Shown here piece after piece: positions 107-34,428 of a stretch of 64,000 nt of DNA. The stretch is from contig CAZTGD010000001.1 in assembly GCA_964613055.1 (NCBI GenBank), positions 6,977 through 70,976 of the forward strand, written 5' to 3'. The notes beneath the pieces were generated by a model. The model was given only the letters and a program-made list of their open reading frames with translations. It was not told where the DNA came from and searched no databases. Made by a program: the position numbers and the translations under genes. This stretch comes from an uncultured Caldisericales bacterium. Its GTDB lineage: Bacteria; Caldisericota; Caldisericia; JAAYUI01. Positions within the stretch are counted from its first letter, which is position 1. Each line of letters opens with the position of its first letter.

Positions 107-1660
107 GTGGTGAGATGGCGAATAGTATTTCTTGTATCAGTCATAATATTTCTTGTAACAATGCTCTGTGGTGAAGTGGTAGCCATTTTGGGTCCCGTTC
201 ATGTGGAATTGAATACATTTGGTGAGATGGAGGGTCCAACTCGCGCAAATACTATTACGTCATTTAAGATATACTTACGTATTAATGAAGACCTGCACTT
301 CGGTGATTGGCTTAAAGTATGGTTTCCCGTCGAAGAAGCCTCAAAGAAGAGAAATGATATATGCTATCCGGTATTTGAAAGCGACAGTTCAACTACATCG
401 AGAGAGATAACTGAAGAAACGTTCTACAAGGTTTTGGACTCAGAAACAGGACTAACTGAATTTTATAATATTTCTGGATGTGATGACATGGACACAGGTG
501 GTGTCAATTCTTCGGGAAAAAATAACTATCTTTATGGCACCGTATTTCCGTCATTGCCAAGAGATGAGGAAGAAAGAAAAGAAAAACTGATGCGAATTGA
601 CCATAGTACAGCCTTAGGCTACAGCCCATGTGGTGATTGTGGTCAAGGATATCCCATAATAACACAAACATGTGAAGAACGCTCATACCAGTTTAATTGT
701 ACTTTCCATTTAGAAACCTGGAGACAAGGTTACAACCCAATTGATATAAACACGAGCTATTATACAGGAATCTTAGCTCCCGCAACACCAGGTAGATACA
801 AGATTCGTGTGGCAACCGAACCAGAACCGACGCCTGTTGAATCAGACGCGTTCTTTCTGCCATGCTCATCTATCACCAAACCTGAACTTCATCTGATAGA
901 GCATAGAAGTACCAAGTATTACGCTGTTAACTTCAGTACTGGTGAAGGCGGAGCATTGGACAGTAGGCACTCAACGATTAATATCAGTTTCCCCGATGGA
1001 TTTGAGTTTTGGAACGTGGATATAGCCAAACGTATTACTGTAAATGGAATTGCCTGCGAAGAGGTCGACCGGGCAGGTCATGATGGAGTCCAAGTATTGT
1101 CGATAAATTCGCCTATCAACGTTAATAATATGGGTATGGTCAGTGTTCTTTTGAAAAGATCTGTTTTTAAAAGAACACTAGAGGATCAGTTTTCCGTGAT
1201 GGTCAACACGAGTTCTGAACCAGAGACCGTTGAATCATTTACATTAAAGGAAGCTAGAAATGATTCATCACTGATCAGGAATATTGAACTCTCATCATAC
1301 AGGACTGGTGATATAGCTGATATCGCTTTCAACCTGGATTCAAGACATCTTCCTGTCCACAAATACACCGAGTTTCGGATAATACTGCCTGAGACTGCAA
1401 GACTCCCTACTGCATTGCAGAATGGGCAATTCCTGATCAATGGTTACCCGGTTGAGAGATTACATCGGTGGAGTGGTAACGAGATAAGTCTGTGGATGAA
1501 CACAAATCATCTGATTGACTATTACTCCTTGAGATCCATTTCTTTTCATCTCACCGAATCTGCGGGGATAGTCAATCCAACTCGAAGGGGATTGAAGAGG
1601 TTGAGTATGAAAGTGGGCGGAAGACGACCCATCAAATCAAAGTATTTCTATATACATTGA
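107..1660 (+). CDS. Hypothetical secreted/membrane-anchored protein, paralogue family A (GPVHVELN / WRQGYNPID / TPATPGRYKIRVATEPEPTPVESDAF motifs)
   Basis: GTG start at 107 with AGGAGG RBS 5 nt upstream. N-terminal hydrophobic segment (IVFLVSVIIFLVTMLCG). Clear paralogy along its length to the 8011..10137 product. No recognisable catalytic motif. Confidence 0.6.
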   Translation: MVRWRIVFLVSVIIFLVTMLCGEVVAILGPVHVELNTFGEMEGPTRANTITSFKIYLRINEDLHFGDWLKVWFPVEEASKKRNDICYPVFESDSSTTSREITEETFYKVLDSETGLTEFYNISGCDDMDTGGVNSSGKNNYLYGTVFPSLPRDEEERKEKLMRIDHSTALGYSPCGDCGQGYPIITQTCEERSYQFNCTFHLETWRQGYNPIDINTSYYTGILAPATPGRYKIRVATEPEPTPVESDAFFLPCSSITKPELHLIEHRSTKYYAVNFSTGEGGALDSRHSTINISFPDGFEFWNVDIAKRITVNGIACEEVDRAGHDGVQVLSINSPINVNNMGMVSVLLKRSVFKRTLEDQFSVMVNTSSEPETVESFTLKEARNDSSLIRNIELSSYRTGDIADIAFNLDSRHLPVHKYTEFRIILPETARLPTALQNGQFLINGYPVERLHRWSGNEISLWMNTNHLIDYYSLRSISFHLTESAGIVNPTRRGLKRLSMKVGGRRPIKSKYFYIH

Positions 1661-1670
1661 GTAGTGTATA

Positions 1671-4600
1671 CTAATTTATACATATGTTACGTTTGAGTGT
1701 ATACAAAGCCTTAAGTTCTGTCTCTGCTTCAACAACCCTCCAAATAAACTCCGCTACACCAATATTGTTCTCAATGAGTTTACTGTCAGTTGTTTTTCCT
1801 GTTAATTGCATCCTTTTGTGGTATAAACTCGCAAGATGCATGGCTGTTTTAGCTACAAGAACCATGTCTTCTTTACCTCTTTCGATAACATCTTCAAGCA
1901 GTTCAATGTACCTTGTAGTGTCGTGTTTGTTGTATTCTTTCCTGTGATCATAGCATGCACCTAAGTTATGTTTGATAAGTATTTTGTATCTGAGTGAGAG
2001 ATCATCACAAAAAATTCTGTTCAGGGTTAATTCAATATCATCTATTATTTTATCTGTTACACAGAAGCCCGGAGTGTTTAGTATATGGAATGCACCGGTC
2101 AATATCAGACCTGTATCCTTTATTTCACAAGCCAACTGCCAAGCCTTTTCAAGGTGCATCTTGCCTTCGTTATACAATCCAGCATGAATATGTGTTTTTC
2201 CAAGTGTTATCCCTGAGTAGATATTTGCAAATGCGTTATTGGAATTCTTGCTCATATTGTGAATTCTCTTTGATTCAAGTTCACTTGTCTGCAGATTGTG
2301 TCTTGAGATATTAACAAGTGCTTTGTAATAAGTCTGCATGACCGTGTTGATAAACGCATATGATGATAAACCCTCTCCGGTTCTCGTTTCAATATCTTCA
2401 TCAATAAGATCATTCCAGTTCCCGAGATGATAATCCACCTTCATGCTGTGTGTTTTTGTCGATCTACAGAGTTCTGGCAAATGCCTTGTTTGGATAAGAA
2501 GTGAAGTTAATGAATCTTTAGATTTCGAGACATTCATATCCATGAAATCTATGATGGCATAGATGAACCTATTGCAAAGCTGTTCTTTCAGATTACCTGT
2601 ATTCATAGCTGTCTTGTTTAGATGATCCGTTATAGTACGAGCTTTATCTCCTTTAAGCATTAACAAAAACAGTGAAACCTTAAGTTTACAACAAGATACA
2701 TGTAGAAAGCCTTTGCAGTTTTCGCTAAAGTGTAACGCTTTCTCTATGTGTTTTAGAGAAGATCTGTAGTCTAGGGAGTAATAATACTGCTTGGACAACT
2801 CGACTGCTATTAGTGTTTCCAATTCAAATAATGGCTTTCTCAGCTTATTTAGATCGTCAAGTAGCTGATTCATCCCTTTCAAACTGCTTTGTGTTGAACC
2901 ATAATTGATTCGAATAATGTTGATGATGTGAATTGATAAATACCTGTAGATTGAATCGCTAATGGTAAATTTATTTAGAAGGCTTTCCGCTTCAAAAGGC
3001 TTTCCATTCTTGACAATATAAAGAGAGTCAATAACATTCCTTATATAGCTGGAAAATGTGTAGTCCGCATTTGAAAACAATTGCTCAAATTCTTTGATGA
3101 TGTCTATTCTACCTTCGAGATTATGGATGATGGATTCACAAAGATAATAGATTAATACAGTTAAAGACTGTTCATGGAGTTGAGCTTGGTAGAGATAATA
3201 TGCCAGATGATTGTATTCTACTAAAGATAAGAGTTTTCGACTGATTAGTAACTTCGCAATTGACAGATAGAGGTTTGTTTGCTTTGCATTGCTGATTCTA
3301 GAAACTATTGTTGAACGAACGAGGCTGTTGTTAAAACGAAACAAAACATTGCCATGAAAGTTTTTTGATGTGATGAGTAATCTTTGTTGGAGCTCATCTA
3401 TATCGTTATTGATTTGATCTCTGCTAAGTTGGAAGCCTTCCAAGAGTTCGTTAAAGCTAAAGAAATCATTGAAAAGTGCGGCGAACTCGAGAATAATCTT
3501 AGCGCTTGTGGACAGGTTTTTCAGTGAAGTGTTGATGATATCAATATCACAGAGTGGTTTTTCATCGTCTATCGATGTTTTAATGTATTCAATATTTTTA
3601 CCGTTTTTCCTAAGAATTCCTTTAGAAACCTGCATTCTTAAGAACTCGAGAATGTATAGAGGGTTGCCCTTTGAATTGTGGATAACGTCGCTTATCAGTT
3701 GCTGTGGTATACTCTGGGTTCCAAGTGACTTACCAATAATTGTGGTTAGGTCTATCCCTTCAAGTGGTTCAATGGGTAAGTGCGTAATATCCTTTAAATA
3801 TTTATCCTTTAGATAAATATTATTCTCGTTGATTTGTGTCATTAATATAAATATATGTTTGTGTTTCTGAGCCAACTCTATGCAGAATTCAACGGAAAAC
3901 CAATCCAGCATGTGTATATCATCAAGAATAATTGCTACTTTTCTCTTGTTATCTGACAAGATCTGTTCGAACTGAATAGCCAGTCTTGAAGTGTCAATAA
4001 ATGTTGTTTCTCTTGAAAGATTGGTAAGATCAGTAATTGACTCGCGTGTATTCCCTTTGAAGTTTTCAGATCCGGATTCAATTCGCCATAGGTCAAATGA
4101 TAGCTGAACGAGACCAGAACCTTTGCTGGGTGTGGAAGCCGAGTTACCTCTTGCCCTAAGTACGGGATGCCTATATAGATGCAAGGAAGAAGCAAACTCA
4201 TCTGTTATTCGAGTCTTTCCGATCCCAAAGGGACCCGAGAGAAGTATAATTCTTTTATCGATATTTCTGGACCACGAATCCTTTATCGTATGTATTTCCC
4301 ATTGGCGATCTACAAGTTCAGGTATGTTGACAATAGTTGGATTGTTTGACCTAGTTTGTAACTCTGAATACCTGATATTTTTTAGAGTCTCAGTAACCTC
4401 CTCTATTGATTGAATCCTCTGTGAGGGGTTCTTCATCAACATGAGTGATATCAGATTATCCAGTTTTTGTGGGACTAGGGCTGAGTGTTTCAGCACAGAG
4501 TTTTGAATATTCTGAAGTATCATGGATATTAAAACTTCAGGGTTGCTGGAATTGATTGGGTATTCACCTGTTATTGTCTTATATATAGAAACGCCTAATG

Positions 4601-5183
4601 AGTAGATGTCTGAACGTGTGTCAATAGGGTTACCGAGGAGTATCTCTGGTGCTAGGTAGTGAAGGGTACCAACAACCGATCCCTTCGATGTAATCCTTCC
4701 ATCAGCACAAAACCTAGCCAAACCAAAATCGATTAGTTTTGAATGCAGACCTTGTCTGTCTACACTTGGTAAAACAATTATATTAGAGGGTTTAATATCC
4801 CTGTGGACTATCCCTTTTGAGTGGAGATATGCAACTGTTTCAGTAATATCAATGAAGATATCGAAAAGCTTGCTGATTGACAGTCTCTCACATTCGGAGA
4901 GCAAAGTTCCTGGCACATACTCCATAACATAGAAAAGATCGTTATTATCTGTGCCGCTGTCATAGATATTCACAATCCCTGGGTGGTTAAGTGATTGCAG
5001 AAGCGAAGCTTCAGCTCGGAATCTGTTGACATTAATAATATTACCTTCGTTGCTTGCGGAGATCATCTTCACAACAATTGGTTTTTCCAATTGAAGATCC
5101 TCTCCAAAGAAAACCGAGGACATACCTGCCCCGCTAAGATTCCCTACCAGCTTGTATCGTCCGAAAAGGATTCTTTCAGACAT
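1671..5183 (-). CDS. Ser/Thr protein kinase fused to P-loop AAA/NB-ARC-like ATPase and long helical/TPR-like C-terminus (STAND-like signalling protein)
   Basis: Kinase subdomain motifs HRDIKPSNI, DFGLARF and GTLHYLAPE. Downstream Walker A LLSGPFGIGKTRI. About 700 aa of Leu-rich helical repeats follow. Confidence 0.8.
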   Translation of the reverse strand: MSERILFGRYKLVGNLSGAGMSSVFFGEDLQLEKPIVVKMISASNEGNIINVNRFRAEASLLQSLNHPGIVNIYDSGTDNNDLFYVMEYVPGTLLSECERLSISKLFDIFIDITETVAYLHSKGIVHRDIKPSNIIVLPSVDRQGLHSKLIDFGLARFCADGRITSKGSVVGTLHYLAPEILLGNPIDTRSDIYSLGVSIYKTITGEYPINSSNPEVLISMILQNIQNSVLKHSALVPQKLDNLISLMLMKNPSQRIQSIEEVTETLKNIRYSELQTRSNNPTIVNIPELVDRQWEIHTIKDSWSRNIDKRIILLSGPFGIGKTRITDEFASSLHLYRHPVLRARGNSASTPSKGSGLVQLSFDLWRIESGSENFKGNTRESITDLTNLSRETTFIDTSRLAIQFEQILSDNKRKVAIILDDIHMLDWFSVEFCIELAQKHKHIFILMTQINENNIYLKDKYLKDITHLPIEPLEGIDLTTIIGKSLGTQSIPQQLISDVIHNSKGNPLYILEFLRMQVSKGILRKNGKNIEYIKTSIDDEKPLCDIDIINTSLKNLSTSAKIILEFAALFNDFFSFNELLEGFQLSRDQINNDIDELQQRLLITSKNFHGNVLFRFNNSLVRSTIVSRISNAKQTNLYLSIAKLLISRKLLSLVEYNHLAYYLYQAQLHEQSLTVLIYYLCESIIHNLEGRIDIIKEFEQLFSNADYTFSSYIRNVIDSLYIVKNGKPFEAESLLNKFTISDSIYRYLSIHIINIIRINYGSTQSSLKGMNQLLDDLNKLRKPLFELETLIAVELSKQYYYSLDYRSSLKHIEKALHFSENCKGFLHVSCCKLKVSLFLLMLKGDKARTITDHLNKTAMNTGNLKEQLCNRFIYAIIDFMDMNVSKSKDSLTSLLIQTRHLPELCRSTKTHSMKVDYHLGNWNDLIDEDIETRTGEGLSSYAFINTVMQTYYKALVNISRHNLQTSELESKRIHNMSKNSNNAFANIYSGITLGKTHIHAGLYNEGKMHLEKAWQLACEIKDTGLILTGAFHILNTPGFCVTDKIIDDIELTLNRIFCDDLSLRYKILIKHNLGACYDHRKEYNKHDTTRYIELLEDVIERGKEDMVLVAKTAMHLASLYHKRMQLTGKTTDSKLIENNIGVAEFIWRVVEAETELKALYTLKRNICIN

Positions 5184-5221
5184 CGATTATATTCTATGGT
5201 TTATTCGATGAATATCAAATC

Positions 5222-5251
5222 TTGACATTACAGATAAATGGATTATCATGG
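5222..5251 (+). promoter_or_regulatory. Candidate sigma-70 promoter for the rpsF operon (TTGACA -16/17- TATCAT)
   Basis: TTGACA at 5222-5227 and TATCAT about 16 nt downstream, roughly 90 nt upstream of the rpsF ATG. Confidence 0.3.
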
Positions 5252-5340
5252 CAGGAATTGTGAGGGATCGTACCTTCTGGTCGAACTCAAGCGAATTCGA
5301 CCCTGTCCCAAATGGGAACAAATGACCGAAGGAGGAGTTA

Positions 5341-5829
5341 ATGAAGAAGTATGAGCAGATGTTCATCCTTGCCACTGATACCGAAGGTGACAAGGAAAAT
5401 GAGCTTGTAGAAAAACTCAAATCTGTGATTCTCGAAGATGGTGGTGAGATCATCGAGTCCACCAGGTGGGGAAAGAGAAAATTGGCTTATGAGATTAGGA
5501 ACCATAATGATGGTATATATTGGTATCATGTCTTTAATGCACCCCCAGAAGTACCCGCAAAACTAAGGCGTATTGTCAGGATCACCGAAGGTTTCATAAG
5601 GGATATCCTGATCGATCTTACATACGCCCAGAAAGCGGAAGAGAGAAGAAAGAATTATCTTAAGGAATCCGAGAAAAGGAAAGCCACTGTCAAACAGGAA
5701 TTGAAGGAGAACAGTGATCGTCAAGAGAATGATTTCAAGGATTTTGATGAGTCGTCAGATGTAAAAGCTAAAGCTGAGAATGATTCCGCTTCGGAACATG
5801 AGGAGGAACAGCCAAAAGATGCTGAATAA
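5341..5829 (+). CDS. rpsF: 30S ribosomal protein S6 with acidic C-terminal tail
   Basis: N-terminal MKKYEQMFIL...RWGKRKLAYEI is a typical S6 sequence. GGAGG RBS upstream. Conserved rpsF-ssb-rpsR-rplI order. Confidence 0.9.
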   Translation: MKKYEQMFILATDTEGDKENELVEKLKSVILEDGGEIIESTRWGKRKLAYEIRNHNDGIYWYHVFNAPPEVPAKLRRIVRITEGFIRDILIDLTYAQKAEERRKNYLKESEKRKATVKQELKENSDRQENDFKDFDESSDVKAKAENDSASEHEEEQPKDAE

Positions 5830-6244
5830 AGTTCTGTTGATTGGAAACCTTGTGGATGATCCAGAGCTTCGATCCACTCCGTCTGGTACCAACATAGCCA
5901 GGATGAGACTCGCTTGCAATGAGAGATACAAATCTAAAGTTACAGGCGAGTTGAAGGAAGACACCCTGTTTGTAACCCTTGATGTTTGGGGTAAACAAGC
6001 CAATACAGCCCAGCAGTATCTTCACAAAGGTAGTAGAATCTTTGTAGAGGGTAAACTGAGGATCAGAAGCTATGATCAAGATGGAATAAGGAAGTGGTTC
6101 ACATCAGTTACGGTATCACGTTTTATCTTCCTCGATAGAAAACAGGGAGGCGATGGCGAAGCAGGTACAGGTTCTAGTGATTCACAACGCACAGGGGAGA
6201 ACGATCCACCAGAATTTGATGAAGACGACATCCCCTTCTCATAG
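5819..6244 (+). CDS. ssb: Single-stranded DNA-binding protein
   Basis: MLNKVLLIGNLVDDPELR...OB-fold sequence with acidic tail ending DDIPF. The table ORF begins at 5780, but ATG 5819 matches canonical SSB N-termini and overlaps the rpsF stop. Confidence 0.85.
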   Translation: MLNKVLLIGNLVDDPELRSTPSGTNIARMRLACNERYKSKVTGELKEDTLFVTLDVWGKQANTAQQYLHKGSRIFVEGKLRIRSYDQDGIRKWFTSVTVSRFIFLDRKQGGDGEAGTGSSDSQRTGENDPPEFDEDDIPFS

Positions 6245-6264
6245 GATAAAAGGAGTATACAACA

Positions 6265-6525
6265 ATGAAGAATAACGATATGGGCTCGAGAAAAAGAGGA
6301 CGAGGAAGGTTCAGGAAACCAAGAAAGAAGATATGCGTGTTCTGCGCGGAACACATGGATTATATTGATTACAAAGACATCAACAGACTTAAAAGATATG
6401 TTTCAGAAACGGGAAGGATTAACTCCAGGCGACAAACTGGAGCTTGCGCAAAGCATCAGAGACGACTGACCACCGCAATCAAAAGAGCGCGTGAGATAGC
6501 CTTATTACCATTTGTGGTGGATTAG
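6265..6525 (+). CDS. rpsR: 30S ribosomal protein S18
   Basis: [15 protein letters not shown]...[29 protein letters not shown] is a typical S18 sequence. AAGGAG RBS. Confidence 0.9.
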
Positions 6526-6534
6526 GAGATACGT

Positions 6535-6993
6535 ATGAAACTGGAAGTAATACTACTTAGAGATGTCCCGAGCCTAGGTTCAAAGGGAGCTGTTGTAAGG
6601 GTTTCCAAAGGCTACGCCAGAAACTACTTGATCAAGAACGACATTGCTCAACTGGCAACAAAACATACCTTAGAGAATCTTGAGCACAACCTCGAGGTTT
6701 CCGACAGACGCTCAAGTAAAGCTAAAGTCAAAGCTGAAGAGATGAAGGAGATGCTTGAAGCGGAAACCATACAGATACATGCAAAGGCAGGACCTACAGG
6801 CACTTTGTTTGGCGCTGTAACCAGAGATGCTGTGGCAAAAGCACTGAAGCGAAAACTCAACATTGTCGTGGGCAAACGCTCTATGACAGTGGATGAGCCA
6901 ATCAAGAGTCTTGGTGTCCACACCGTTCACATTGACCTCCATCATGAGGTGAAGGCTAATTTGAATGTAGAGGTTGTTTCTGTAGCCAATTAA
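6535..6993 (+). CDS. rplI: 50S ribosomal protein L9
   Basis: MKLEVILLRDVPSLGSKGAVVRVSKGYARNYL is the L9 N-domain signature. Confidence 0.9.
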   Translation: MKLEVILLRDVPSLGSKGAVVRVSKGYARNYLIKNDIAQLATKHTLENLEHNLEVSDRRSSKAKVKAEEMKEMLEAETIQIHAKAGPTGTLFGAVTRDAVAKALKRKLNIVVGKRSMTVDEPIKSLGVHTVHIDLHHEVKANLNVEVVSVAN

Positions 6994-7021
6994 TCTAATC
7001 CGAAAACCAATTATCAATTGA

Positions 7022-7067
7022 ATCCAAACAACCGGGGAAGGCATTAATCGTCCCCGGTTGTTTGGAT
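7022..7067 (+). terminator. Perfect 17-bp stem hairpin after rplI (ATCCAAACAACCGGGGA ... TCCCCGGTTGTTTGGAT)
   Basis: Inverted repeat with a 12-nt loop 29 nt after the rplI stop, followed by TTTA. The T-tract is weak, so rho-independent function is uncertain. Confidence 0.45.
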
Positions 7068-7201
7068 TTATACTTTCGTTTCAAATTTTCAGATAGCTTG
7101 ATTTATCGAGATTCCAAAATTTTTACATTATCCTAATTGTCCTAAATGCATCAGATTATTAATCCAGATAATCTAGATATTGATTGTGTGAAACTCATTG
7201 A

Positions 7202-7933
7202 CTAATCATTGAAATTCAAACACGTCTTACGAATAATTTCTGAAACAAGCTCTATTCGTTCATTGAATATCGAGATGACCTCTTCATGCTTCAATTTCTT
7301 TTTTGCAACACCCGCCGCATGATTGGTAATGACTGCAAGAGCGCAGAAGGGTATCTCCAACTCAGCAGACAGAATGGCTTCAGTTGCAATGGTCATACCT
7401 ACAATTGTTGCCCCCATGGTTGAGTATGCCTTGATTTCTGCGGGAGTCTCATACCTTGGGCCATTTGTGCATATATAAACAGCGGATGGATGAAACAACA
7501 CATTTTCATCAACCAATGCTTTTTGCAAATGACTTCGGAGTTGAGAAGAGAATGGTTCGGATACATCAATGTGCCTCACCTTACCTGCTTCATCAAAGAA
7601 CGTGTTTTTCCGTCCATGAGTGAGGTCGATAAACTGATCGGGGATTGCAAGATCGCCAGGAGACATGTCTGGCTTGATTCCCCCAACAGCGCACGTTGCA
7701 TAGATGCCTGTCACACCAATCTGCTCTAATACTTTTATGTTTGCACGATAGTTGATTGCAGATGGTGGTAGTCTGTGTCCCGAACCATGTCGAGTTAGGA
7801 AGACAACCTCAAAACCCTCGAGATAGCCGATTTTGATGGTTGCTTTACCATAGTCTGTTTCTATCTCTTCGTCTCTGGAATCCTCAAGCCACGGCAAGTT
7901 ATACACCCCTGAACCACCAATTATTGCAATCAT
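7202..7933 (-). CDS. mtnP: S-methyl-5'-thioadenosine phosphorylase / purine nucleoside phosphorylase (PNP/MTAP family 2)
   Basis: MIAIIGGSG...TRHGSGHRLPPSAINYRANI...ICTNGPRYETPAEIKAY...ITNHAAG are typical MTAP/PNP motifs. Confidence 0.75.
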   Translation of the reverse strand: MIAIIGGSGVYNLPWLEDSRDEEIETDYGKATIKIGYLEGFEVVFLTRHGSGHRLPPSAINYRANIKVLEQIGVTGIYATCAVGGIKPDMSPGDLAIPDQFIDLTHGRKNTFFDEAGKVRHIDVSEPFSSQLRSHLQKALVDENVLFHPSAVYICTNGPRYETPAEIKAYSTMGATIVGMTIATEAILSAELEIPFCALAVITNHAAGVAKKKLKHEEVISIFNERIELVSEIIRKTCLNFND

Positions 7934-8010
7934 ATCTTCCCTCTGTGTCCTTTGATAGCTAGAGAATACTAGAAAAAATAGAGGTTATCAAGAACTGACA
8001 AGGATATTGT

Positions 8011-10137
8011 TCAACGACCATTGGGCTTCATGTGGTAAACATAGGTGATCCAATCACTCCATTCTCTGTAACGGTAGTTCAGATTGTGATGTGAATCAAA
8101 ATCACCGGGTGTCTTTCCAACCGACAGATTGTATTCACTGTTCGAATAATCATGCTGAAAGAGGAATACTGAACCGGGGCTGTTTGTGTAACCAACAACT
8201 TCATTTGGTAGCATCTTTGTAAACTCAACAGGATAGATCTCACCGAAGCGGTGGAAAACCTTTGTGTAATCACTGCTGAATCCAACCGATGGAATAAAGA
8301 GGAAATAAACATCGTGTTCATGTCGGATCTTCTTGCACTTTATGCTTGCGCACTGATCACCACCAACAATACCCATCATATAGTTGATCCCACTTCTGGC
8401 TGTAGCGCAGTGGATAGAGCATTCTCTCCAGCTTTTTATCATGACATCACAATACGGGAAGATGGTTTCAAAACCCGGATACGGTATCGTCAGCTGAGGA
8501 TTGAATGGATCGAAAGCGCTGAATCCAGGTTCGTAATGACAGCAGTCGGGACCAAGAAACGCAGTAGGTGATTCTTCATCTGTGGTATAATAGGTTAACA
8601 GGTACTCGGATTCATAAAAAATGGGTATGGGCAGTACCAAGTTCATGAGTTCATAGCGAACCTCTGGTCTCCTGCCCCACACAACAAATTCAAGGTCTTC
8701 AATCAGTTCATTGTATTTTGTAGTTTCCTCATCACTGGCGTTCTCATGATCAAAAGCACCATCATCTGATGGTAGTTCCTTATGTTCAAGTATTTGTTCT
8801 CTTACATGTTCAGGTGTTCTATTCCACAGATACCTTCCAGGTGTGCCAATGAATGATTGACAGCTTACACTCTCGGGTTCTGAGCTTGTGGTCGCTGAGA
8901 ATGTAATCATCTTTGACTCTTCAGGCTTTGGTATGCCTGCCTTTGAATCGATAGTGATATTTACGTGTTCCATGTTGTCAATATTCACAGGCGATACGAT
9001 GCTCAGTGTGTTGGTGTCTTTGAGATACTTTGCATGAACCTTCAGTGGTTTCCCGTTGACATGGATATCTGATGGTCCATATCTTTTGGGTAGTTCAAAC
9101 TTATTGGGGAATTTTATGTTGATGGTTGAGTATCCAGCATCCAGTGAGCCACCTTCACCGACATAGAAATCAATGGTAACGGAGATGTTATCATCCGAGT
9201 CATTTGATTCACAGGAAACCCTGAAACCTGATATCTGTGAACATGGTAGAACAAACGCGTCTGATTCAACGGGTGTTGGTTCAGGTTCAGTGGCAACACG
9301 GATCTTGTATCTGCCGGGTGTGGCGGGAGTTATAAAGCCTACACTTTGAGAAACAACCAGGTCTATTGGATTATACCCCTGTCTCCATGATTCTACATGT
9401 ACTGGTGAACGTAGCTGGAATAAACATCTTTTTTCATCCTGTATCATGATTGGATACGCCATACATTCAGAGCAAGGGTTGTAACCTGGTGAACAAGCAT
9501 GAACATATTTCATAGTTATTACCTTCCTATCCGATCTGTCCCTTGGCAATGCTGGTAACACCGTTCCCATTATCCAGCAACCCAACCCAGATGGGTCTTC
9601 AACGAGTCTACAATAACCCTCTTCTACTTCATCACAGTCAATGCAGTCATAGAATTTTGTATCAACATCACGTTCATCCAACACCTCATAAAGCTTCCCA
9701 ACCCTCTCCTCCTCTGGATTGTCATACTTCTCGAAGTACTTCTCATTGGGAACAAACCTGGGACTCTCATCATGTCCCTTTATCACAAACTCCTCACCAC
9801 ACACATCCTCCCAGTCATCAGAAGCCTCTTGTGTGGGAAACCACACCTTAACCCAATCATGTGTATGAATACCTTCACTGATACGCATGAATATCTTAAA
9901 AGCCGTTGGAGTGTTTGCCCTAGCATGACCCAACCTCTCCCCCGTGATATTCAACTCCACATGCACAGGACCCAACACAGCCTGAGTACTCCCCAACCGA
10001 AACACAAAAAACATGATAACAGCCAACAGAAATGATACAGCCACCCTATACGCATATAAGCTATATCTACACTTATTCTCATACTTATGATTACCCTTAT
10101 ATCTGTACAACACACTCACCCCCTTCCATCTTTTCAT
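8011..10137 (-). CDS. Hypothetical secreted/membrane-anchored protein, paralogue family A (longer member, aromatic/Cys-rich C-terminal extension)
   Basis: Shares the GPVHVELN, HxxDWVKVWFP, WRQGYNPID and TPATPGRYKIRVATEPEPTPVESDAF blocks with 107..1660. The ORF-table start is 10245. ATG at 10137 (MKRWKG...) places a TM helix (VAVSFLLAVIMFFVF) just before the conserved domain, so the start is uncertain. Confidence 0.55.
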   Translation of the reverse strand: MKRWKGVSVLYRYKGNHKYENKCRYSLYAYRVAVSFLLAVIMFFVFRLGSTQAVLGPVHVELNITGERLGHARANTPTAFKIFMRISEGIHTHDWVKVWFPTQEASDDWEDVCGEEFVIKGHDESPRFVPNEKYFEKYDNPEEERVGKLYEVLDERDVDTKFYDCIDCDEVEEGYCRLVEDPSGLGCWIMGTVLPALPRDRSDRKVITMKYVHACSPGYNPCSECMAYPIMIQDEKRCLFQLRSPVHVESWRQGYNPIDLVVSQSVGFITPATPGRYKIRVATEPEPTPVESDAFVLPCSQISGFRVSCESNDSDDNISVTIDFYVGEGGSLDAGYSTINIKFPNKFELPKRYGPSDIHVNGKPLKVHAKYLKDTNTLSIVSPVNIDNMEHVNITIDSKAGIPKPEESKMITFSATTSSEPESVSCQSFIGTPGRYLWNRTPEHVREQILEHKELPSDDGAFDHENASDEETTKYNELIEDLEFVVWGRRPEVRYELMNLVLPIPIFYESEYLLTYYTTDEESPTAFLGPDCCHYEPGFSAFDPFNPQLTIPYPGFETIFPYCDVMIKSWRECSIHCATARSGINYMMGIVGGDQCASIKCKKIRHEHDVYFLFIPSVGFSSDYTKVFHRFGEIYPVEFTKMLPNEVVGYTNSPGSVFLFQHDYSNSEYNLSVGKTPGDFDSHHNLNYRYREWSDWITYVYHMKPNGR

Positions 10138-10327
10138 CACCCTGAAATCAAAACAACCTTGTTTGCATATTCCATTATCCACAGCTATGAAACACCAACA
10201 ACAACCAGCAGGTGATGCTGAGGTTAAAGACGACAAGAACAACACCCAAATACAATACGATGGTCACCAGTTGATCCATAAACCAATAGCTATCGTCTTA
10301 CATAAATATTCTCAATAAATACAAACA

Positions 10328-10420: not shown

Positions 10421-13400
10421 CTACTTCTCTGATGGATACACCACCTCAATAGCGCTCTCCTCTGCTATCCAGTTTACATCAGCACCCAGTGACTCACAGG
10501 CAAACCTGAGTGGGAGCATGGTGCGACCATTCACAATTGTTGGATAGAGGACAGTCTGACCATCGGCACCAATGATTGTCGTCTCTACACCATTTATCTT
10601 GGCAGTGGACACATTGTCCACCCAAAGCTGAAGGAACGTATTGCCCAGTGTGACGTCAACCCTTCTGTCAGCATCAATCCAATCAACCGTTGCGCCCAAC
10701 GCCTCAAACACAGCCCTGACTGGCATGTATGAGTTGCCAGCAAGCTCTGCAGGAAGAGGTGGTGACTTGGTTGTAGGCATGGGATCAAGATCATCCGCCT
10801 GTTTGTTATTGATGACAAACTTGGGCTCATTGACCCAGAGTTTGAGCCTTATGGTTTCAACAGTTTCAAACTTGATGTAGCTGTCGATGGTTGATTCATT
10901 CCCAAGCGTGTCAACTGCCTTGACAGTTACAGCGTTGAGGCCAGAGTTGAGTTCAATTTCAAAGCTGAAGTTGCCTTCCAGATCAACTGAAGCTTCTTGA
11001 CCATTTATGAAGACCTTTGCCATAGGTTCAGTCGTTCCTTCAAGCGTAACTGGTGATTGAGAGACGAGTTCTGGAATATCACACTCAATGGCTGGAGGCT
11101 GTGAATCAACGATGAGAGTAAATGGAGTAGGATCAGAAGTTTTTTCACTCATTGTCGAAGCAATGACAGTAACATTGTATTGACCGTCTCCTTCTACGGT
11201 AATCTCTAACTCAAAGGAACCCTCTTCGTCTGACTGGCAGTACCCAACTGGAACATTGTCTATGAGTGCAACAACGCTGTGATTGGGGGATGTTTTCCCT
11301 TTGAGTGTGTATGTGGTTGTTTGCGAACCGGCGAATCCGGGTTCAGGAAGATCGAGTTCAAGGGGGATCTTAGTGGCATCAATGATTACAGTCCTGTTGA
11401 GTTTAAAAACATTACCTGCCTTATCCTTGGAAACCATATTGATTGTGTATTCACCGTCTTCGAGATCCTTGAGTATCACGCTGAACTCACCATTGGCAGA
11501 TACTTCAATGGGTTCATCGTTCACCATCAGTCTCGCTCCACGTTCGGTAGCGCCCTGGAACTCAAATGGAAGGCTGACAATCTTTTGACCCTCCTTAATG
11601 GTTGTTCGGATTATAGGTCTTCTTGTGTCAAGGATTACAACCTTGATAACATCGGCGGCATTTCCATCAGCGTCTTCAGCGTGGAACTTCAGCTCATTGC
11701 GACCCTCGTCAATGGGTATCATATCGCTGAATGTGCCATCTGTTTTAACAGTAACGGGTCTACCGTTAACGCTGAGTGTTGCACCTGGAACGGTTGTACC
11801 CTCTACCTTGAAGCTGTCCTCATTTGTGATTGTGGTATCGTCAAGGTCTATGTCTAGTTTTATTGGGGGTTTTGCAACAACGTTCATTTCAATTGGTATC
11901 GAGAGATTGCCAACACTCGACTCGACATCAATTGATCCACTGTGCATTCCGGGTTCCATACCTTCAGCAGACAGTGTGACCTCGTATGTCTGTGAGAGGG
12001 TGACATACTCTGTTGAAGACAGTGATATCCAATCATCGCTTGGGGTTAGTGTTCCGTTTATCTCACCAGTGTCATTATAATAAACTCGAACGTTTCTCGT
12101 TTTGACTTCATCCGGGTAGATCTGGTTTATCCTGATTGTGGATGGATCTGAGTACAGTCCTACAACCTTTTCGCCATAGCATATGATCCTGTCACCACTG
12201 ACAAACACCTTATCGTTTGCGATCACGGGCATTGGCATAATCATCGACCCACCACCAAACGGCATTCCACCGGACATCATTGTATCATCAGTGAAAACTA
12301 TTTCACCATCTGTGATGTTGGCTATTGAGAATTTGGTTCCTCTTGTGCTGATAACCTTGTCCTTAGTACAGGCAAATTGCATACAAGTGAATGCCATGCC
12401 ACCGGGTGTTTCGTTCTTCCACACAAGAGAGCCTTTGTTCTTGCTGACGCATATTGTATGACTCATGGCGAGTTGGAGAACGATACCTCTTGGTGTGATG
12501 GCAGGTATACCATATAGGCAGAAATCAACAGTTCTTTCATTAGCGTAGTCAATGCTGGAGATATCAAACACCCAGATATCTTCTCCATTCTCAGCGTTGC
12601 ATGCCATGAGTTCGCTGGTGGGCATGACCATCCTTCTACCACCGATTTCACTCGGTACTTTCATTTTAGAGAAGTAGATTCTACCATCTGCATAGGAGAT
12701 TCCTCCTGCAATTTCGCTTTCATCAAGCTTCTTTTCCCATGCTATCTTTCCCTCCTCATCAAATGCAATAACGGCAGAATCATTAATCTCAGGCATTGGA
12801 TTATCAGGATTCATCTTGATCTTTGCTACAGATGTAAATATCTTCCCATCCCCGTATGTCAGCATCATCAGTGGCATCCTGTCTAGATCAGCACTCCAAA
12901 CCTCTGACTGGTTATTTGGATCCATACATACAAACCTGGTGTTACCAATTGTCCGATCCTCACCTATCTCAGTGTATGCAAGATAGATATACTCTTCGCC
13001 AACCAGCCCTCCTGATATTGTGGTGGGTTTTTTTATCACTTCTTTGAAGATCTCGGCTCCATTTTCAGGTGAAATCATACCAATAACAGAACTCACTTCT
13101 GTCTCTTCAGTGGTACTCATCGGGTGACCACCTCCTCCAGGACGACCGCCTCCATGACCTCCACCTCCTGATCCATCTTCTCCACCTCCAGCTTGCATGT
13201 AAGATGTACAGATGAATACGATCTTCCCATCAACATATCCAATTTGAGCTGAACCTATTTCTCCAACCTTATAGCTCCATAGCTCTCGACCATCAGATTG
13301 TTCTAAGCATACAATCACGCCCTGTGATGTGCCAAAAATTATCTTGTCATCGATTGCTATGTGTGATGCAATTGTTCCGTTCTCAGGATAGTATACCCAT

Positions 13401-13558
13401 TCTCTTTGCATTACATCGGGTATGGTTGTGTCTGGTTGATAGTTGGTGTGAGAAGGATCATTAAACATGTTTGGCCAATCTGAATTGGTGGTCGCTGTCA
13501 GTATAAAAGCTGGCACTAGAAGTGCGACTACAACCAGTAATGCAGTAAACTTTCTCAT
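10421..13558 (-). CDS. Large secreted cell-surface protein: PQQ-like beta-propeller repeats, Gly-rich linker, Ig-like repeats, C-terminal copper-amine-oxidase-N-like (stalk) domains
   Basis: Start refined to ATG 13558 (MRKFTALLVVVALLVPAFILTA signal peptide, GGAG RBS), clearing the eno stop. Low-complexity GGGEDGSGGGGHGGGRPGGGGHP segment. Repeated W/Y-rich propeller motifs. C-terminal VPLRFACESLGADVNWIAEE stalk-type repeats. Confidence 0.7.
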   Translation of the reverse strand: MRKFTALLVVVALLVPAFILTATTNSDWPNMFNDPSHTNYQPDTTIPDVMQREWVYYPENGTIASHIAIDDKIIFGTSQGVIVCLEQSDGRELWSYKVGEIGSAQIGYVDGKIVFICTSYMQAGGGEDGSGGGGHGGGRPGGGGHPMSTTEETEVSSVIGMISPENGAEIFKEVIKKPTTISGGLVGEEYIYLAYTEIGEDRTIGNTRFVCMDPNNQSEVWSADLDRMPLMMLTYGDGKIFTSVAKIKMNPDNPMPEINDSAVIAFDEEGKIAWEKKLDESEIAGGISYADGRIYFSKMKVPSEIGGRRMVMPTSELMACNAENGEDIWVFDISSIDYANERTVDFCLYGIPAITPRGIVLQLAMSHTICVSKNKGSLVWKNETPGGMAFTCMQFACTKDKVISTRGTKFSIANITDGEIVFTDDTMMSGGMPFGGGSMIMPMPVIANDKVFVSGDRIICYGEKVVGLYSDPSTIRINQIYPDEVKTRNVRVYYNDTGEINGTLTPSDDWISLSSTEYVTLSQTYEVTLSAEGMEPGMHSGSIDVESSVGNLSIPIEMNVVAKPPIKLDIDLDDTTITNEDSFKVEGTTVPGATLSVNGRPVTVKTDGTFSDMIPIDEGRNELKFHAEDADGNAADVIKVVILDTRRPIIRTTIKEGQKIVSLPFEFQGATERGARLMVNDEPIEVSANGEFSVILKDLEDGEYTINMVSKDKAGNVFKLNRTVIIDATKIPLELDLPEPGFAGSQTTTYTLKGKTSPNHSVVALIDNVPVGYCQSDEEGSFELEITVEGDGQYNVTVIASTMSEKTSDPTPFTLIVDSQPPAIECDIPELVSQSPVTLEGTTEPMAKVFINGQEASVDLEGNFSFEIELNSGLNAVTVKAVDTLGNESTIDSYIKFETVETIRLKLWVNEPKFVINNKQADDLDPMPTTKSPPLPAELAGNSYMPVRAVFEALGATVDWIDADRRVDVTLGNTFLQLWVDNVSTAKINGVETTIIGADGQTVLYPTIVNGRTMLPLRFACESLGADVNWIAEESAIEVVYPSEK

Positions 13559-13571
13559 ATTGTCTTCTCCT

Positions 13572-14828
13572 TTAGATAACGCCATAAGTAGCGTTTTCAC
13601 CGAGTTCTTCTTCGATTCGAAGTAACTCATTGTATTTTTCAACACGTTCAGTTCGAGCTGGAGCGCCAGTCTTTATCTGTCCACTCCTGGAAGCTACCGC
13701 CAGGTGTGCAATGAAACTGTCTGCAGTTTCACCCGAACGGTGAGAAATAACGTAGCTGTAGCCGCTTTTTCTGGCAAGCTCAATCGTTTCCCACGTCTCT
13801 TTGACACTACCGATTTGATTTAGTTTAATTAGTATTGAATTGGCAAATTTGTCTTCAATTCCCTTCTTGAATATCCCTCGATTTGTAACGAACAGGTCAT
13901 CACCAACAACCTGTATTTTATCTCTGAGGGCTTTTGTGTGAAGCTTCCATCCATCGGCATCCTGCTCTGCCATGCCATCTTCAATTGATACGATTGGGTA
14001 TTTATCTATCATCTTTTCATACCAAGCATTAAGGTCATATGAGGTGATCTGTTTACCCTCGAATGAATATTTCCCGTCTTCATATATCTCTGATGATGCG
14101 GCATCTATTGTTAGTTCACAGTCCTCACCAGGTTTATAGCCAGCCTTCTTGATGGCGTTCATCAATAGCTGGAATGCTTCCTCGTGACTCTCAAGGTCTG
14201 GTGCGAAGCCACCTTCATCGCCTACAGCTGTAGACAAACCCTTTTCGTTCAATATCTTCTTGAGTGTGTGGTAAATCTCGATTCCCATCCTCAAACCCTC
14301 TGAGAATGTATCTGCGCCAGAGGGGAAGATCATGAATTCCTGCAAGTCAAGATTGTTGCTTGCATGAGCTCCACCGTTAATCACATTCATCATTGGCACA
14401 GGTAGATGACTAGCCATTGCTCCACCAAGATATCTGTACAGTGGCATATTAAGCGAATTTGCACCAGCTCTGGCAACAGCCAATGATACTGCAAGGATTG
14501 CGTTTGCTCCTAGTTTACTCTTGTTCTTAGTCCCATCGAGTTTCAGCAGAAGACTATCAACTCCAGCCTGATCGAATACATTGAAGTCAAACAGGGAGTT
14601 GGTGATCTTGTCATTGATCGTGTTTATTGCTGTTTCTACGGATTTACCCATGTAGTATTTTGGATTGCCGTCTCTCAATTCAAGAGCCTCTCGCATTCCG
14701 GTTGACGCTCCAGATGGAACAGCGGCTCTTCCAATGATTCCGTCAGAAGTAACTACGTCCGCTTCTATAGTTGGGTTACCTCTGGAATCGATTATCTGTC
14801 TGGCTGTTACGTTTTCAATTGTACTCAT
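13572..14828 (-). CDS. eno: Enolase (phosphopyruvate hydratase)
   Basis: [17 protein letters not shown]...[16 protein letters not shown]...[10 protein letters not shown] are canonical enolase motifs. Confidence 0.92.
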
Positions 14829-14938: not shown

Positions 14939-15025
14939 GCCGAAGTGGCGGAATTGGTAGACGCGCATGGTTCAGGTCCATGTCCAGGCAACTGGGTGGG
15001 GGTTCAAGTCCCTTCTTCGGCACCA
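14939..15025 (+). tRNA. tRNA-Leu (anticodon CAG), long variable arm, encoded CCA
   Basis: Manual fold. Acceptor GCCGAAG/CTTCGGC. Anticodon stem CATGG/CCATG with loop TTCAGGT. Variable stem CCAG/CTGG. 3' terminal ACCA. Confidence 0.85.
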
Positions 15026-15067
15026 CTGTTTCTTAGAACCCATACAAATATCAGCTGTATTGATAAT

Positions 15068-17257
15068 ATGAGGTTATCATCTCTTGTTCTTGTTGTGACC
15101 GCTATTGTGACTACGTCTGTCGTGTCTTCATCATTAATTGCTGTTGACGATTACAGAAAAGCTCCCGCTCCACCTTTTTCTTTGACATCAAAAGTGGATA
15201 TTGAAGCTGGATATCTTTCAAAATATCCACCAGTCTCGTTTAGGGATGGGTATATTTTTGGTGACTCCAAAGGGAGACTGCAGTACATAGTTGGTGACAG
15301 TTGCTGGATGAGTGTCTCTGTTGATGGTTCAGATATCAAGTCAGCACCAATTCTGGATGGGGATATCGTATTAGTTGGTACAATGGCAGGTACGTTGGCA
15401 AGTATTCATATGCCATCTGGAGAGTTGCGATGGGCGTTCAAAGCGAAGAATGCAATTATTGGAAGACCTCTTGTAGCAGAGGATAATGTTTATTTTGGCA
15501 GTGCTGATGAGAGATTCTATTGCCTCAACTTAGAAGATGGTTCAAAAGTATTTGAATATCAAACCAATGCTCCGATATGGAGTACTCCTTGTGTTGTGGG
15601 TGATAGTGTGATTTTTGGGTGTGATGATGATTCAGTTTATTGTATCAACAGGTTTGATGGAGAGCTAATTTGGGTGTTCAAGTGCGATGGCTGGGTGGAG
15701 GCAGAACCTGTAGTTGATGATATTTTTATATACATAGGTACTTTGGGTGGGAGTGTGTATAAAATAGATATCTTAACAGGTGAATTGGAATGGAAAATAC
15801 AACTTAATGATGCAGTTCATTCAAAGGGTGTGCAGATAGATAACAGGTATTTTACCGCTGATGACTCGGGATCGATAACATGTTTGGATACTTTCAACGG
15901 AGAAATTATCTGGCAGAGAACAGACTACTCCGCAATTGATACGCCTTTAGAGACAAATGGGGAGTTGATCTATTTTACCGACGAAAACAAGAGGTTTGTT
16001 TGTTTGGATGTGTTTGGTGATCAACTCTGGAGAAGGAATATGATTCATGCGGTTCGGAGTGGTGTTTTGGTGGATGAGTACACTCTTGTTATGGTGAGTT
16101 CAGATGGATTTCTTGAATGTTGGGATGAATGTGGTTATGTAGAGGTTACACCAAAGAACCGTTATCTGGGAGAGGTTGCTGAGGAGGATGGTTTTTTTTC
16201 ATTCAGGATGGATATTGTATCAGGTAGAAAGGATGATCGAGCTTCCCAGGGGATGATCGATTATAGACCTTTTGAAGCGGGGAAAAGGTGCAAAGCAGTT
16301 CAATTCAAGGAGTTGGGAATATCCTATATCAAGAATTTGCGGGTATTCAGCTATGAAGGAAACATAGATCTTTCAGATCCGTCCTTCTGTGATGGATCGA
16401 ACGATTTCGTTGTATATTTTGGTATCGGTCAACCGTTAAGCGAGGGTGATGGGATTTACCAGTCTCCCAGCTCAGATGGAATGGTTCACACTCGGTTTAC
16501 CTTTGATTTGGTTAGTGACAGGTCAGATTGTCAGACATGCGAGCCATGTTATAAAGTCAGCATAACGCCCAATAATACACCCTATTTCAAACGAAATGAG
16601 TCTGGGAGTTTTGAGATACAAGTTTCGTCTGCAGACGATATCAACAGGGAGATAGAGATTAATATAGAGGGCATAAAGGGAATCGAAAGTGAGGAACTCA
16701 AACTGATGCAGGAAGATGGTTTAGTGTCTCACCAAATTGAGTTCGATTGCATGGATCTGCCTGGAGGTTCGTATTTTCAGATACCGATCAGTATATCGTG
16801 TGTGACCTGCCCCAGACCAAATGAGAAAATGAGGTCTGATTGGCATTCAAACAGAACGATCAGTTTCACAACAGACCCCAGGCTGAGGATAGATATGAAA
16901 CCTGATTCGGTGGATGTGTTGGTCAACGGTAATCCAGTAAGACTCGATGTGCCAGCCAGGATAGTTGATGGCAGAACTCTTGTGCCTATAAGATTTGTAG
17001 CCGAAACGTTTGGTTGTGATGTATCTTGGGAGCAGGAAACAAAGAAGGTAACTATAATTAAAGATGAAACTGTTCTCAATTACTGGGCGTATCAAAAGAG
17101 AGCCAGATTCAATGGACTTGATGTGGAAATCGATGTTGGTCCCATAATCGAAAGGGGACGAACACTCGTTCCCTTTCGCTCAGTTGCCGAATCACTTGGA
17201 GCTTATGTACGGTGGATAGCTACATCAAGAGATATAATAATTGATTGGGAGTTTTAG
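15068..17257 (+). CDS. Secreted PQQ-like beta-propeller repeat protein with two C-terminal copper-amine-oxidase-N-like (stalk) domains
   Basis: The table ORF (14945) starts inside the tRNA. ATG 15068 gives signal peptide MRLSSLVLVVTAIVTTSVVSS. Repeated propeller motifs (DG..W, YF.TADDSG). C-terminal RTLVPIRFVAETFGCDVSWE and RTLVPFRSVAESLGAYVRW. Confidence 0.7.
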   Translation: MRLSSLVLVVTAIVTTSVVSSSLIAVDDYRKAPAPPFSLTSKVDIEAGYLSKYPPVSFRDGYIFGDSKGRLQYIVGDSCWMSVSVDGSDIKSAPILDGDIVLVGTMAGTLASIHMPSGELRWAFKAKNAIIGRPLVAEDNVYFGSADERFYCLNLEDGSKVFEYQTNAPIWSTPCVVGDSVIFGCDDDSVYCINRFDGELIWVFKCDGWVEAEPVVDDIFIYIGTLGGSVYKIDILTGELEWKIQLNDAVHSKGVQIDNRYFTADDSGSITCLDTFNGEIIWQRTDYSAIDTPLETNGELIYFTDENKRFVCLDVFGDQLWRRNMIHAVRSGVLVDEYTLVMVSSDGFLECWDECGYVEVTPKNRYLGEVAEEDGFFSFRMDIVSGRKDDRASQGMIDYRPFEAGKRCKAVQFKELGISYIKNLRVFSYEGNIDLSDPSFCDGSNDFVVYFGIGQPLSEGDGIYQSPSSDGMVHTRFTFDLVSDRSDCQTCEPCYKVSITPNNTPYFKRNESGSFEIQVSSADDINREIEINIEGIKGIESEELKLMQEDGLVSHQIEFDCMDLPGGSYFQIPISISCVTCPRPNEKMRSDWHSNRTISFTTDPRLRIDMKPDSVDVLVNGNPVRLDVPARIVDGRTLVPIRFVAETFGCDVSWEQETKKVTIIKDETVLNYWAYQKRARFNGLDVEIDVGPIIERGRTLVPFRSVAESLGAYVRWIATSRDIIIDWEF

Positions 17258-18837: not shown

Positions 18838-18838
18838 A

Positions 18839-18946
18839 CTAAGCCTCCTTGTTCCAGAAGACAATACCAATAATCACACAGACTACAGCTGACAGAATGG
18901 TCAGAATGAATCCGAGAAATGTAGTAAAATCGGCGAATCCAAGCAT
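18839..18946 (-). CDS. 35-aa hydrophobic mini-protein (MLGFADFTTFLGFILTILSAVVCVIIGIVFWNKEA), symporter-associated small subunit-like
   Basis: ATG with AAGGAGG RBS. Single TM helix. Its stop lies 2 nt before the SSF transporter start. Too short for the ORF table. Resembles the small DUF-type peptides found next to SSF transporters, but this cannot be verified here. Confidence 0.45.
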   Translation of the reverse strand: MLGFADFTTFLGFILTILSAVVCVIIGIVFWNKEA

Positions 18947-18977
18947 AATAATCCTCCTTGTGGTTTATGATTCGCCG

Positions 18978-19005
18978 ATTATAGCATAAAAATGTAGAAT
19001 CACAA
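18978..19005 (-). promoter_or_regulatory. Candidate sigma-70 promoter (TTGTGA -16- TATAAT) driving the mini-ORF and symporter
   Basis: Reverse complement of 18978-19005 reads TTGTGA-16 nt-TATAAT, about 30 nt upstream of the mini-ORF RBS. Confidence 0.35.
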
Positions 19006-19006
19006 A

Positions 19007-20024: not shown

Positions 20025-20104
20025 GATTAGCATGTTAACACACCTGTCAGATAATACAGTGAATTAAACATTAGAACTTGACGGTGATAAAGATACAAAC
20101 TTAA

Positions 20105-34068: not shown

Positions 34069-34145
<77 letters not shown>

Positions 34146-34152
34146 TTGGTGT

Positions 34153-34226: not shown

Positions 34227-34245
34227 TATATCATTGGCATGGTAT

Positions 34246-34320: not shown

Positions 34321-34335
34321 CATCGAAAAGAGGGA

Positions 34336-34410: not shown

Positions 34411-34428
34411 CATTTGTATAGTTGATGT

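Follow-up and report, generated by a model that had tools for sequence, protein, structure and literature searches.

Why do two proteins that differ at more than half of their aligned positions keep one stretch of 25 residues letter for letter? The question is raised by two open reading frames (ORFs), here called A and B, in a 64,000-nucleotide stretch of DNA from an uncultured Caldisericales bacterium (contig CAZTGD010000001.1 of assembly GCA_964613055.1, positions 6,977 to 70,976; hereafter the window). The window sequence is identical to a contig of the metagenome-assembled genome (MAG) GCA_054921975.1. The explanation that we favour, with a probability of about 0.7, is that A and B are Sec-secreted extracellular or surface proteins made of immunoglobulin (Ig)-like modules behind a family-specific head domain, and that the shared peptide is the fold-defining hairpin and junction of this head, kept by purifying selection.

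Two divergent paralogues share an identical 25-residue block

The two genes and the two copies of the block lie as follows.

107..1660, plus strand: ORF A, 517 residues, with a signal peptide, a head domain and two Ig-like modules (from the ORF list)
8011..10137, minus strand: ORF B, 708 residues from the ATG at 10137, the frame being open to a GTG at 10245; the protein is identical to P0010
779..853, plus strand: the 25-residue block in A, PATPGRYKIRVATEPEPTPVESDAF, residues 225-249 of 517, forming the last two strands of the head
9327-9253, minus strand: the block in B, with a peptide identical to that of A

Comparison of the two products by BLASTP gave 42% identity over 397 residues (E 6e-91), and neither has a match in Pfam or NCBIfam. 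This agrees with an earlier reading of the window, made from its letters alone (the original prediction), which took A and B to be divergent paralogues of an uncharacterised secreted family. No third copy was found in the 64-kilobase (kb) window by tblastn. The motifs that the same reading had listed as common to both proteins are real: the exact runs are LGPVHVELN (9 residues), KVWFP (5), WRQGYNPID (9) and the block. The block had been described as a 26-mer; the identity is genuine but extends over 25 residues, the preceding one being Ala in A and Thr in B. At the nucleotide level the two copies differ at 12 of 75 bases, where about 10 differences had been counted, and all of them are indeed synonymous third-position changes.

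A run of 25 identical residues against a background identity of about 40% is not a product of chance. Nor does it result from recent gene conversion. Among codons that specify the same amino acid in A and B, four-fold degenerate sites differ at 10 of 17 positions in the block and at 34 of 58 in the rest of the homologous region (59% in both cases; Fisher p = 1). Equal, saturated synonymous divergence within and outside the block rules out a recent conversion event and confirms that, as first proposed, the peptide is held by purifying selection. The duplication itself is old. In a neighbour-joining tree computed without the block, A falls with P0002 in one deep clade and B with P0006, P0003, P0005, P0013 and others in a second, each clade including proteins from other genomes.

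Conservation of the block is a property of the whole family and not a peculiarity of the A/B pair: this is the most conserved 25-residue window that family members have, with a mean pairwise identity of 0.74 compared to 0.42 for the homologous region. An alignment of 32 sequences shows 10 invariant and 5 nearly invariant positions in it, and an invariant LPCS directly after it. Among 300 family pairs of comparable divergence, identity in the block is usually 18-20 out of 25, and only A and B reach 25/25 (counted twice, P0010 being identical to B). P0011 and P0031, from different genomes, also have 25/25 in the block. In P0002, which is A's closest relative, three residues of the block depart from those of A. 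The extreme identity of the A/B pair could reflect either an ancient short conversion or chance retention of states that are common in the family (K/R, E/K, P/A).

Translation of A from the GTG at position 107 is preceded, 5 nt ahead, by a strong ribosome-binding site, AAAGGAGG. A protein 100% identical to A (P0001) is encoded on a 292-kb MAG contig, and A's protein was also found in a microbial-mat metagenome assembly. For B, initiation probably takes place at the GTG at 10113, rather than at the ATG at 10137 or the GTG at 10245, because GGAAGGGGGTGA precedes this codon and the homologue P0006 begins at the same place. A terminator-like hairpin (10351-10328) lies between B and the gene upstream of it.

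The block corresponds to the boundary motif of a repeated beta-sandwich module

An AlphaFold2 (AF2) model of A, with a mean predicted local distance difference test score (pLDDT) of 81.5, has beta strands at residues 229-237 and 244-251 (pLDDT 87-92). Strands predicted with this confidence indicate an ordered hairpin rather than a linker. The family profile was run exhaustively against 1.8 billion representative proteins (E <= 1e-3). The search matched 650 proteins, many of them 1500-4600 residues long, and the large ones gave 5-16 separate hits each to profile positions of about 230-530, that is, from the block onwards. Local hidden Markov model (HMM) alignments place the block on the motif found at every repeat boundary of these giant proteins. 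In P0105, the boundaries aligned to it read aGIiNPTRSGTYRLRVSTSKEPTVVTSHSYVI, PTRSGTYRLRVSTSKEPTVVTSHSYVI, GIKNPTEPGNYYLTVATSREPTYITSYYYKI and GIRNPGIPGSYKLKVWTEKEPTKVLSNLYTL. A regular expression written for the resulting repeat motif (NP..G.Y.l.V.T..EP..V.S..f.I) gave 325 matches, spread over 148 of 175 related proteins, and none in shuffled sequences; the spacing is about 133-144 residues (median 144).

The same motif recurs within A and B, whose domains are laid out as follows.

107..184, plus strand: predicted type I signal peptide of A, residues 1-26, ending in ...GEVVA ahead of ILGPV; helix at 2-20 in the AF2 model
185..871, plus strand: head domain of A, residues 27-255, an elaborated Cys-rich beta-sandwich (from the family alignment)
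872..1246, plus strand: Ig-like module 2 of A, residues 256-380, all-beta in the model and supported by the alignment
1247..1657, plus strand: module 3 of A, residues 381-517 (from the alignment and the HMM alignment)
9979..10137, minus strand: presequence of B, ending in ...GSTQA ahead of VLGPV; its N-region is long and basic, its core hydrophobic
9226..9978, minus strand: head domain of B, residues 54-304; its Cys-rich insert is complete
8866..9225, minus strand: Ig-like module 2 of B, residues 305-424 (from BLASTP and the alignment)
8014..8865, minus strand: C-terminal domain of B, residues 425-708 (284 residues), rich in aromatics, Cys and His

Module 2 of A opens with F.TGEGGALD...S.I.I.FP and matches the repeat modules of the giant proteins; in both A and B, module 2 closes with the hairpin motif (V.TSSEPE.V.S..F). 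Module 3 of A (pLDDT 85-94) is a diverged copy of the same module type (ILPETARLP ... GIVNP..G...L..KV) and closes with a degenerate form of the motif. Within the head domain, the block thus represents the F-G hairpin by which this repeated beta-sandwich module is defined. The initial suggestion that it constitutes a processing, sorting or interaction site is not supported by these data, the block being internal, predicted with confidence as strands, periodic in multi-repeat proteins and devoid of any sorting motif. Judging from the predicted model, the block would serve as fold core and domain junction.

Generic multi-repeat proteins share the module pattern Y.I.F.tG..GaL..g...I.i.FP.g..vP..i....i.vNG ... 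aGi.NP..G.Y.l.V.T..E...v.S..y.I, to which modules 2 and 3 of A and the block align. Unlike the family, they have neither the Cys-rich head nor the LPCS junction, and their hairpin is conserved in pattern only, whereas the family block is conserved residue by residue. The module is also present in giant proteins with FlgD_ig or type IX secretion system (T9SS)-type C-termini. Among curated families it is linked only to DUF2808 (PF10989), and that by borderline scores: P0052 reaches 28.9 bits (cut-off 25.3) and P0095 26.3 bits; P0201 has a precomputed match. A and B do not match DUF2808, and only 1 of 32 family members scores (E 0.18). A DUF2808 protein has been detected in the Anabaena exoproteome (PMC10957091); the literature on DUF2808, like that on the Caldisericum envelope and S-layer, provided general context only.

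A head domain with two constant cysteines

The first 230-250 residues of the mature proteins form one compact domain (model of B residues 54-304: pLDDT 87, predicted TM-score 0.87). Its sequence pattern suggests a repeat-type module into which a Cys-rich segment of about 120 residues is inserted: the first strands read ...F.I...N..I..DW.K.WFP, and the block supplies the last ones. The PRFVPN.KYF.KY sub-insert, which most members have, is missing from A. The head domain matched no entry in sequence searches of Pfam, NCBIfam and the PDB, and a Foldseek comparison with the PDB gave no match at E < 0.01 (best E 0.012, TM < 0.3). The full-length proteins A and B were likewise without a match in Pfam (E <= 0.1), NCBIfam and PDB sequences, and searches of the same three resources with the family profile and the head-domain profile gave nothing usable, in line with the earlier statement that the family has no assignable motif.

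Two cysteines, one following DI in a DIC motif (Cys86 in A) and the other in LPCS (Cys253 in A), are both present in 51 of 51 full-length heads. On sequence grounds, they probably form a disulfide that ties the end of the hairpin to the insert. Both are missing in six proteins of a sister subfamily (P0117, P0120, P0155, P0171, P0174 and P0132). The sister proteins have a signal peptide, the same hairpin (..NP..PG.Y...VAT..EPT...S) and generic modules. In their first module, an LPxLPxD...R helix and an SPCxxCQGLPI loop stand in place of the large insert, and they also lack the xLGPVxVELN mature N-terminus; their match to the head profile does not begin before about position 165.

Other interpretations of the cysteines were considered. 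Heme attachment (CxxCH) was rejected, the second Cys being followed by His in neither protein (CGDCGQ in A, CSECMA in B). A thioester was rejected for want of a conserved Gln, and the CxxC itself is complete in just 32 of 55 heads. A redox or heme role for the CxxC thus seems unlikely.

Modular architectures and resemblance to known surface proteins

The AF2 model of A gave 60 PDB matches at E <= 1e-3 in a Foldseek search, identifying an Ig-like beta-sandwich fold; the top matches were PrgB (E 2.4e-11), SspB C123 (E 4e-7), MSCRAMMs and integrin legs, with low TM-scores, as expected for multi-domain chains. Against the Pfam Ig-like families (Big_x, Cna_B, FN3, CARDB), members gave only sub-threshold matches to Big_8 and Big_13. 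Four architectures are found in the family.

Architecture 1: head and one module, about 410 residues
Architecture 2: head and two modules (A and relatives, 517-557 residues)
Architecture 3: head, one module and the 284-residue domain (B, P0013, P0023 and the split gene P0025/P0176)
Architecture 4: head, modules, Glucodextran_B/Big and Cu_amine_oxidN1 (P0008, P0011 and P0041; 828-1100 residues)

The Cu_amine_oxidN1 domain (PF07833), present in the paralogues P0008, P0011, P0035, P0037 and P0041 and in neither A nor B, is known from cell-wall hydrolases and from the surfaceome of a Gram-positive bacterium (PMC4137172). Its occurrence on surface proteins suggests that the long forms have a head-stalk-wall-domain layout like that of surface adhesins. 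A and B resemble PrgB, SspB/AspA (antigen I/II) and the Cna/SdrG/ClfA MSCRAMMs, which are adhesins with tandem Ig-like domains of the DEv-IgG type, in their tandem beta-sandwich fold and in being secreted, and the long paralogues further resemble Gram-positive adhesins in the succession of N-terminal head, repeat stalk and C-terminal wall domain. They differ from these adhesins in that identity is just 6-13%, Pfam membership and LPXTG are lacking, and the anchor, if present, is Cu_amine_oxidN1. By analogy of architecture, an adhesin-like function can be put forward tentatively, at slightly less than even odds.

The C-terminal domain of B had been estimated at about 250 residues; it is longer than that, at 284 residues, and is aromatic- and Cys-rich as described (15.8% Phe+Trp+Tyr; 8 Cys). 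It is strongly conserved in its few orthologues (P0013, P0023, P0176), with motifs FLGPDCCHYEPGFSA.D, YPGF.TI.PYCDVMIKS.R.CS, GGDQCA..CK, EIYP.EF..MLP and YV.HMK..GR, six conserved Cys and a vicinal Cys-Cys-His. Searches of Pfam and PDB sequences gave no match to this domain, and a search for further homologues yielded only P0176. It could be a binding or catalytic domain.

Export signals and tests for sorting motifs

The hydrophobic N-terminus common to A and B, originally described as an anchor, looks instead like a cleavable type I signal peptide. A rule-based check was applied to 47 family members with the xLGPV motif. Ala occupies position -1, directly before xLGPV, in 45 of the 47, and 37 of the 47 carry V, T or A at -3. 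Presequences are 26 residues long in the median, with a minimum 12-residue hydropathy of 2.3. This combination of Ala at -1, the -3 pattern and a hydrophobic core points to Sec export and cleavage by signal peptidase I, rather than to a membrane anchor. The signal peptide of A conforms to this pattern: its N-region is basic, its core is hydrophobic and position -1 is Ala.

None of the sorting signals examined accounts for the block, and the check on which the original prediction would have fallen, namely that the block be a known sortase, lipobox or other motif, returned no match. The LPCS does not qualify as an LPXTG sortase signal, as it is internal (residue 251 of 517), with more than 260 folded residues beyond it; neither A nor B has a hydrophobic or basic tail at the C-terminus. 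A second candidate in A, LPETA (window positions 1385-1399, residues of about 427-431), was rejected as a sortase site, being the 'FP.G..P' position of a module with 85 folded residues to follow. A lipobox was rejected because Leu occupies position -1 in A (...TMLC before G) and the Cys is missing in other members. A twin-arginine translocation (Tat) signal was rejected too: A has RWR, and the other members have K-rich N-regions without RR. The tatA and tatC genes lie directly upstream of A, outside the window (L001 1959-2888); their proximity was judged incidental, there being no RR motif in the signal peptides. A surface-layer homology (SLH) or other known S-layer domain was not matched by Pfam in A, B or the 32 aligned members.

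Alternative explanations for the conserved block

In the organisation that we favour, signal peptidase I would cut between Ala and xLGPV, so that the mature N-terminus opens with the head of about 230-250 residues. This beta-sandwich with its Cys-rich insert would be followed by one or two Ig-like modules and, in the longer paralogues, by Glucodextran_B/Big and Cu_amine_oxidN1 domains, the whole being presumably displayed at the surface. The F-G hairpin formed by the block would close the head and pass via the invariant LPCS into the next module, with Cys253 probably disulfide-bonded to Cys86, and purifying selection would preserve it as fold core and domain junction.

Some observations weigh against this interpretation. 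The block of the head domain is far more invariant in sequence (PATPGRY, EPTPVES) than the hairpin of the generic module, and a constraint beyond plain fold maintenance is likely. The head has no solved structural neighbour, and the adhesin role is read from architecture. A and B carry no anchor domain, surface attachment being assumed for both, and the type of envelope in Caldisericota is itself unsettled (PMC7203096).

The high invariance could mean that the block is a dedicated functional site (for docking or interaction, processing or sorting), with any structural role secondary. The rank of the block above all other family windows (0.74 versus 0.42), its contrast with the generic hairpin, the presence of two adjacent invariant residues, E245 and S246, that cannot both be buried, and the 25/25 match of A and B, extreme among 300 comparable pairs, can all be read in this sense. 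However, the block is internal, lies in confident predicted strands and recurs periodically in hundreds of repeat proteins; there is no LPXTG, lipobox, twin-arginine or C-terminal sorting architecture, and nothing suggests cleavage. We consider this explanation unlikely.

A self-assembling envelope layer (S-layer or sheath lattice), in which the head and its hairpin would provide the lattice contacts, is doubtful as well. It would accommodate the several paralogues per genome with one common head domain, the wall-associated domain of some of them, their clustering with envelope genes and the conserved mature N-terminus. On the other hand, the abundance of Cys in the head would be unusual for an S-layer protein, Pfam shows neither SLH nor another known S-layer domain, and the C-terminal architectures vary widely.

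Still less probable is an old short gene-conversion tract between A and B, later overwritten by synonymous change. P0002 is about 60% identical to A elsewhere, yet has three differences in the block, whereas B is about 39% identical to A elsewhere and has none, and the two genes are only some 6.4 kb apart. But the 59% divergence of four-fold sites in and out of the block implies that any conversion was ancient; the three sites concerned are at common family states (K/R, E/K, P/A), the paralogue sets of other genomes show no homogenisation of the block, and P0011 and P0031 share all 25 residues across different genomes. Both the conversion and the lattice explanations are compatible with the structural interpretation of the block.

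It is also quite improbable that the head is a new Caldisericota-specific domain for envelope assembly or ligand binding, its hairpin and Cys86-Cys253 junction acting as a docking surface for the anchor-less A and B onto Cu_amine_oxidN1-anchored paralogues or the wall, though if true this would reveal an undescribed multi-paralogue surface-layer system in a phylum with a poorly understood envelope.

Under the structural interpretation, secreted tandem Ig-like surface proteins are already known in kind, the explanation for the block is an ordinary one and nothing here points to a new mechanism. What is new is the family and its head domain, both unannotated and restricted to one phylum, and a repeat module for which there is no curated model. 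The analysis provides a first working annotation for two hypothetical proteins and their family, and exposes an unannotated repeat module in about 650 proteins of public data. It also illustrates that a striking identical peptide between divergent paralogues can be a fold-defining hairpin, not to be over-read as a signal. Should the head prove to be an envelope-assembly or adhesion domain, it would inform on the poorly characterised cell surface of Caldisericota.

Distribution and genomic context

A pattern-based scan that covered a single genome for each GTDB species identified 23 loci. All lie in MAGs whose label is Caldisericia, Caldisericales or Caldisericota, or in one MAG that has no label but carries the same family. 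Named proteins in a large protein database are also from Caldisericia, and the proteins with the head domain (at least 50) are all in Caldisericota. Family genes are clustered, with three in tandem in locus L005 and several in L004 and L006. In three other genomes they adjoin genes for surface proteins with PQQ-propeller, Big, Glucodextran_B and Cu_amine_oxidN1 domains. L004 repeats the enolase and kinase-AAA_16 neighbours of the window (kinase-AAA_16 at 17920-20442). The family locus of L004 (GCA_041391325.1, 5777-16988) is fragmented into numerous short ORFs, as in the split B orthologue P0176 + P0025, reflecting either assembly frameshifts or real pseudogenisation.

The gap of about 6.4 kb between A (ending at 1660) and B (8011) is occupied by the following genes.

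1671-5183, minus strand: Ser/Thr kinase fused to an AAA_16 ATPase
5341-6993, plus strand: rpsF-ssb-rpsR-rplI
7202-7933, minus strand: PNP_UDP_1 phosphorylase

The kinase-AAA_16 product is 1170 residues long, with a STAND-like ATPase and a long helical C-terminus. The paralogues had been said to flank the rpsF operon. The ribosomal genes do lie between them, but the description holds only loosely, the kinase-AAA_16 and phosphorylase genes lying there too. A meaningful tie to the operon was rejected as incidental, since the three other genome neighbourhoods read show clustering with surface-protein genes. No ribosomal-protein gene is annotated in these three neighbourhoods, and two of them have an enolase or kinase gene.

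Beyond B, the order of genes in the window is a surface protein (10421-13645), enolase (13572-14828) and a second PQQ propeller. The first of these is

10421..13645, minus strand: surface protein beside B, with a PQQ beta-propeller, three Glucodextran_B, Big_6, Big_13 and a C-terminal Cu_amine_oxidN1 (from Pfam)

In all, the window has three large PQQ/BamB-like propeller ORFs, at 10421-13645 (minus strand), 14945-17257 (plus strand) and 26659-29145 (plus strand). Proteins of this type also border family genes in other Caldisericia genomes. A tRNA-Leu(CAG) gene (14939-15025, plus strand) overlaps the GTG listed as the start of the ORF at 14945-17257, so the real start of this ORF must be further downstream. 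A Type ISP restriction-modification enzyme is encoded as a single polypeptide at 22272-25559 (minus strand), with N6_Mtase, ISP_coupler and Type_ISP_C domains. Further along, a cluster of tRNA genes at 34069-34504 (plus strand) specifies Pro(TGG), Arg(TCT), Arg(CCT), Arg(TCG) and Lys(CTT), and two more tRNA genes, for Leu(TAG) and Gly(GCC), are found at 35537-35715 on the same strand.

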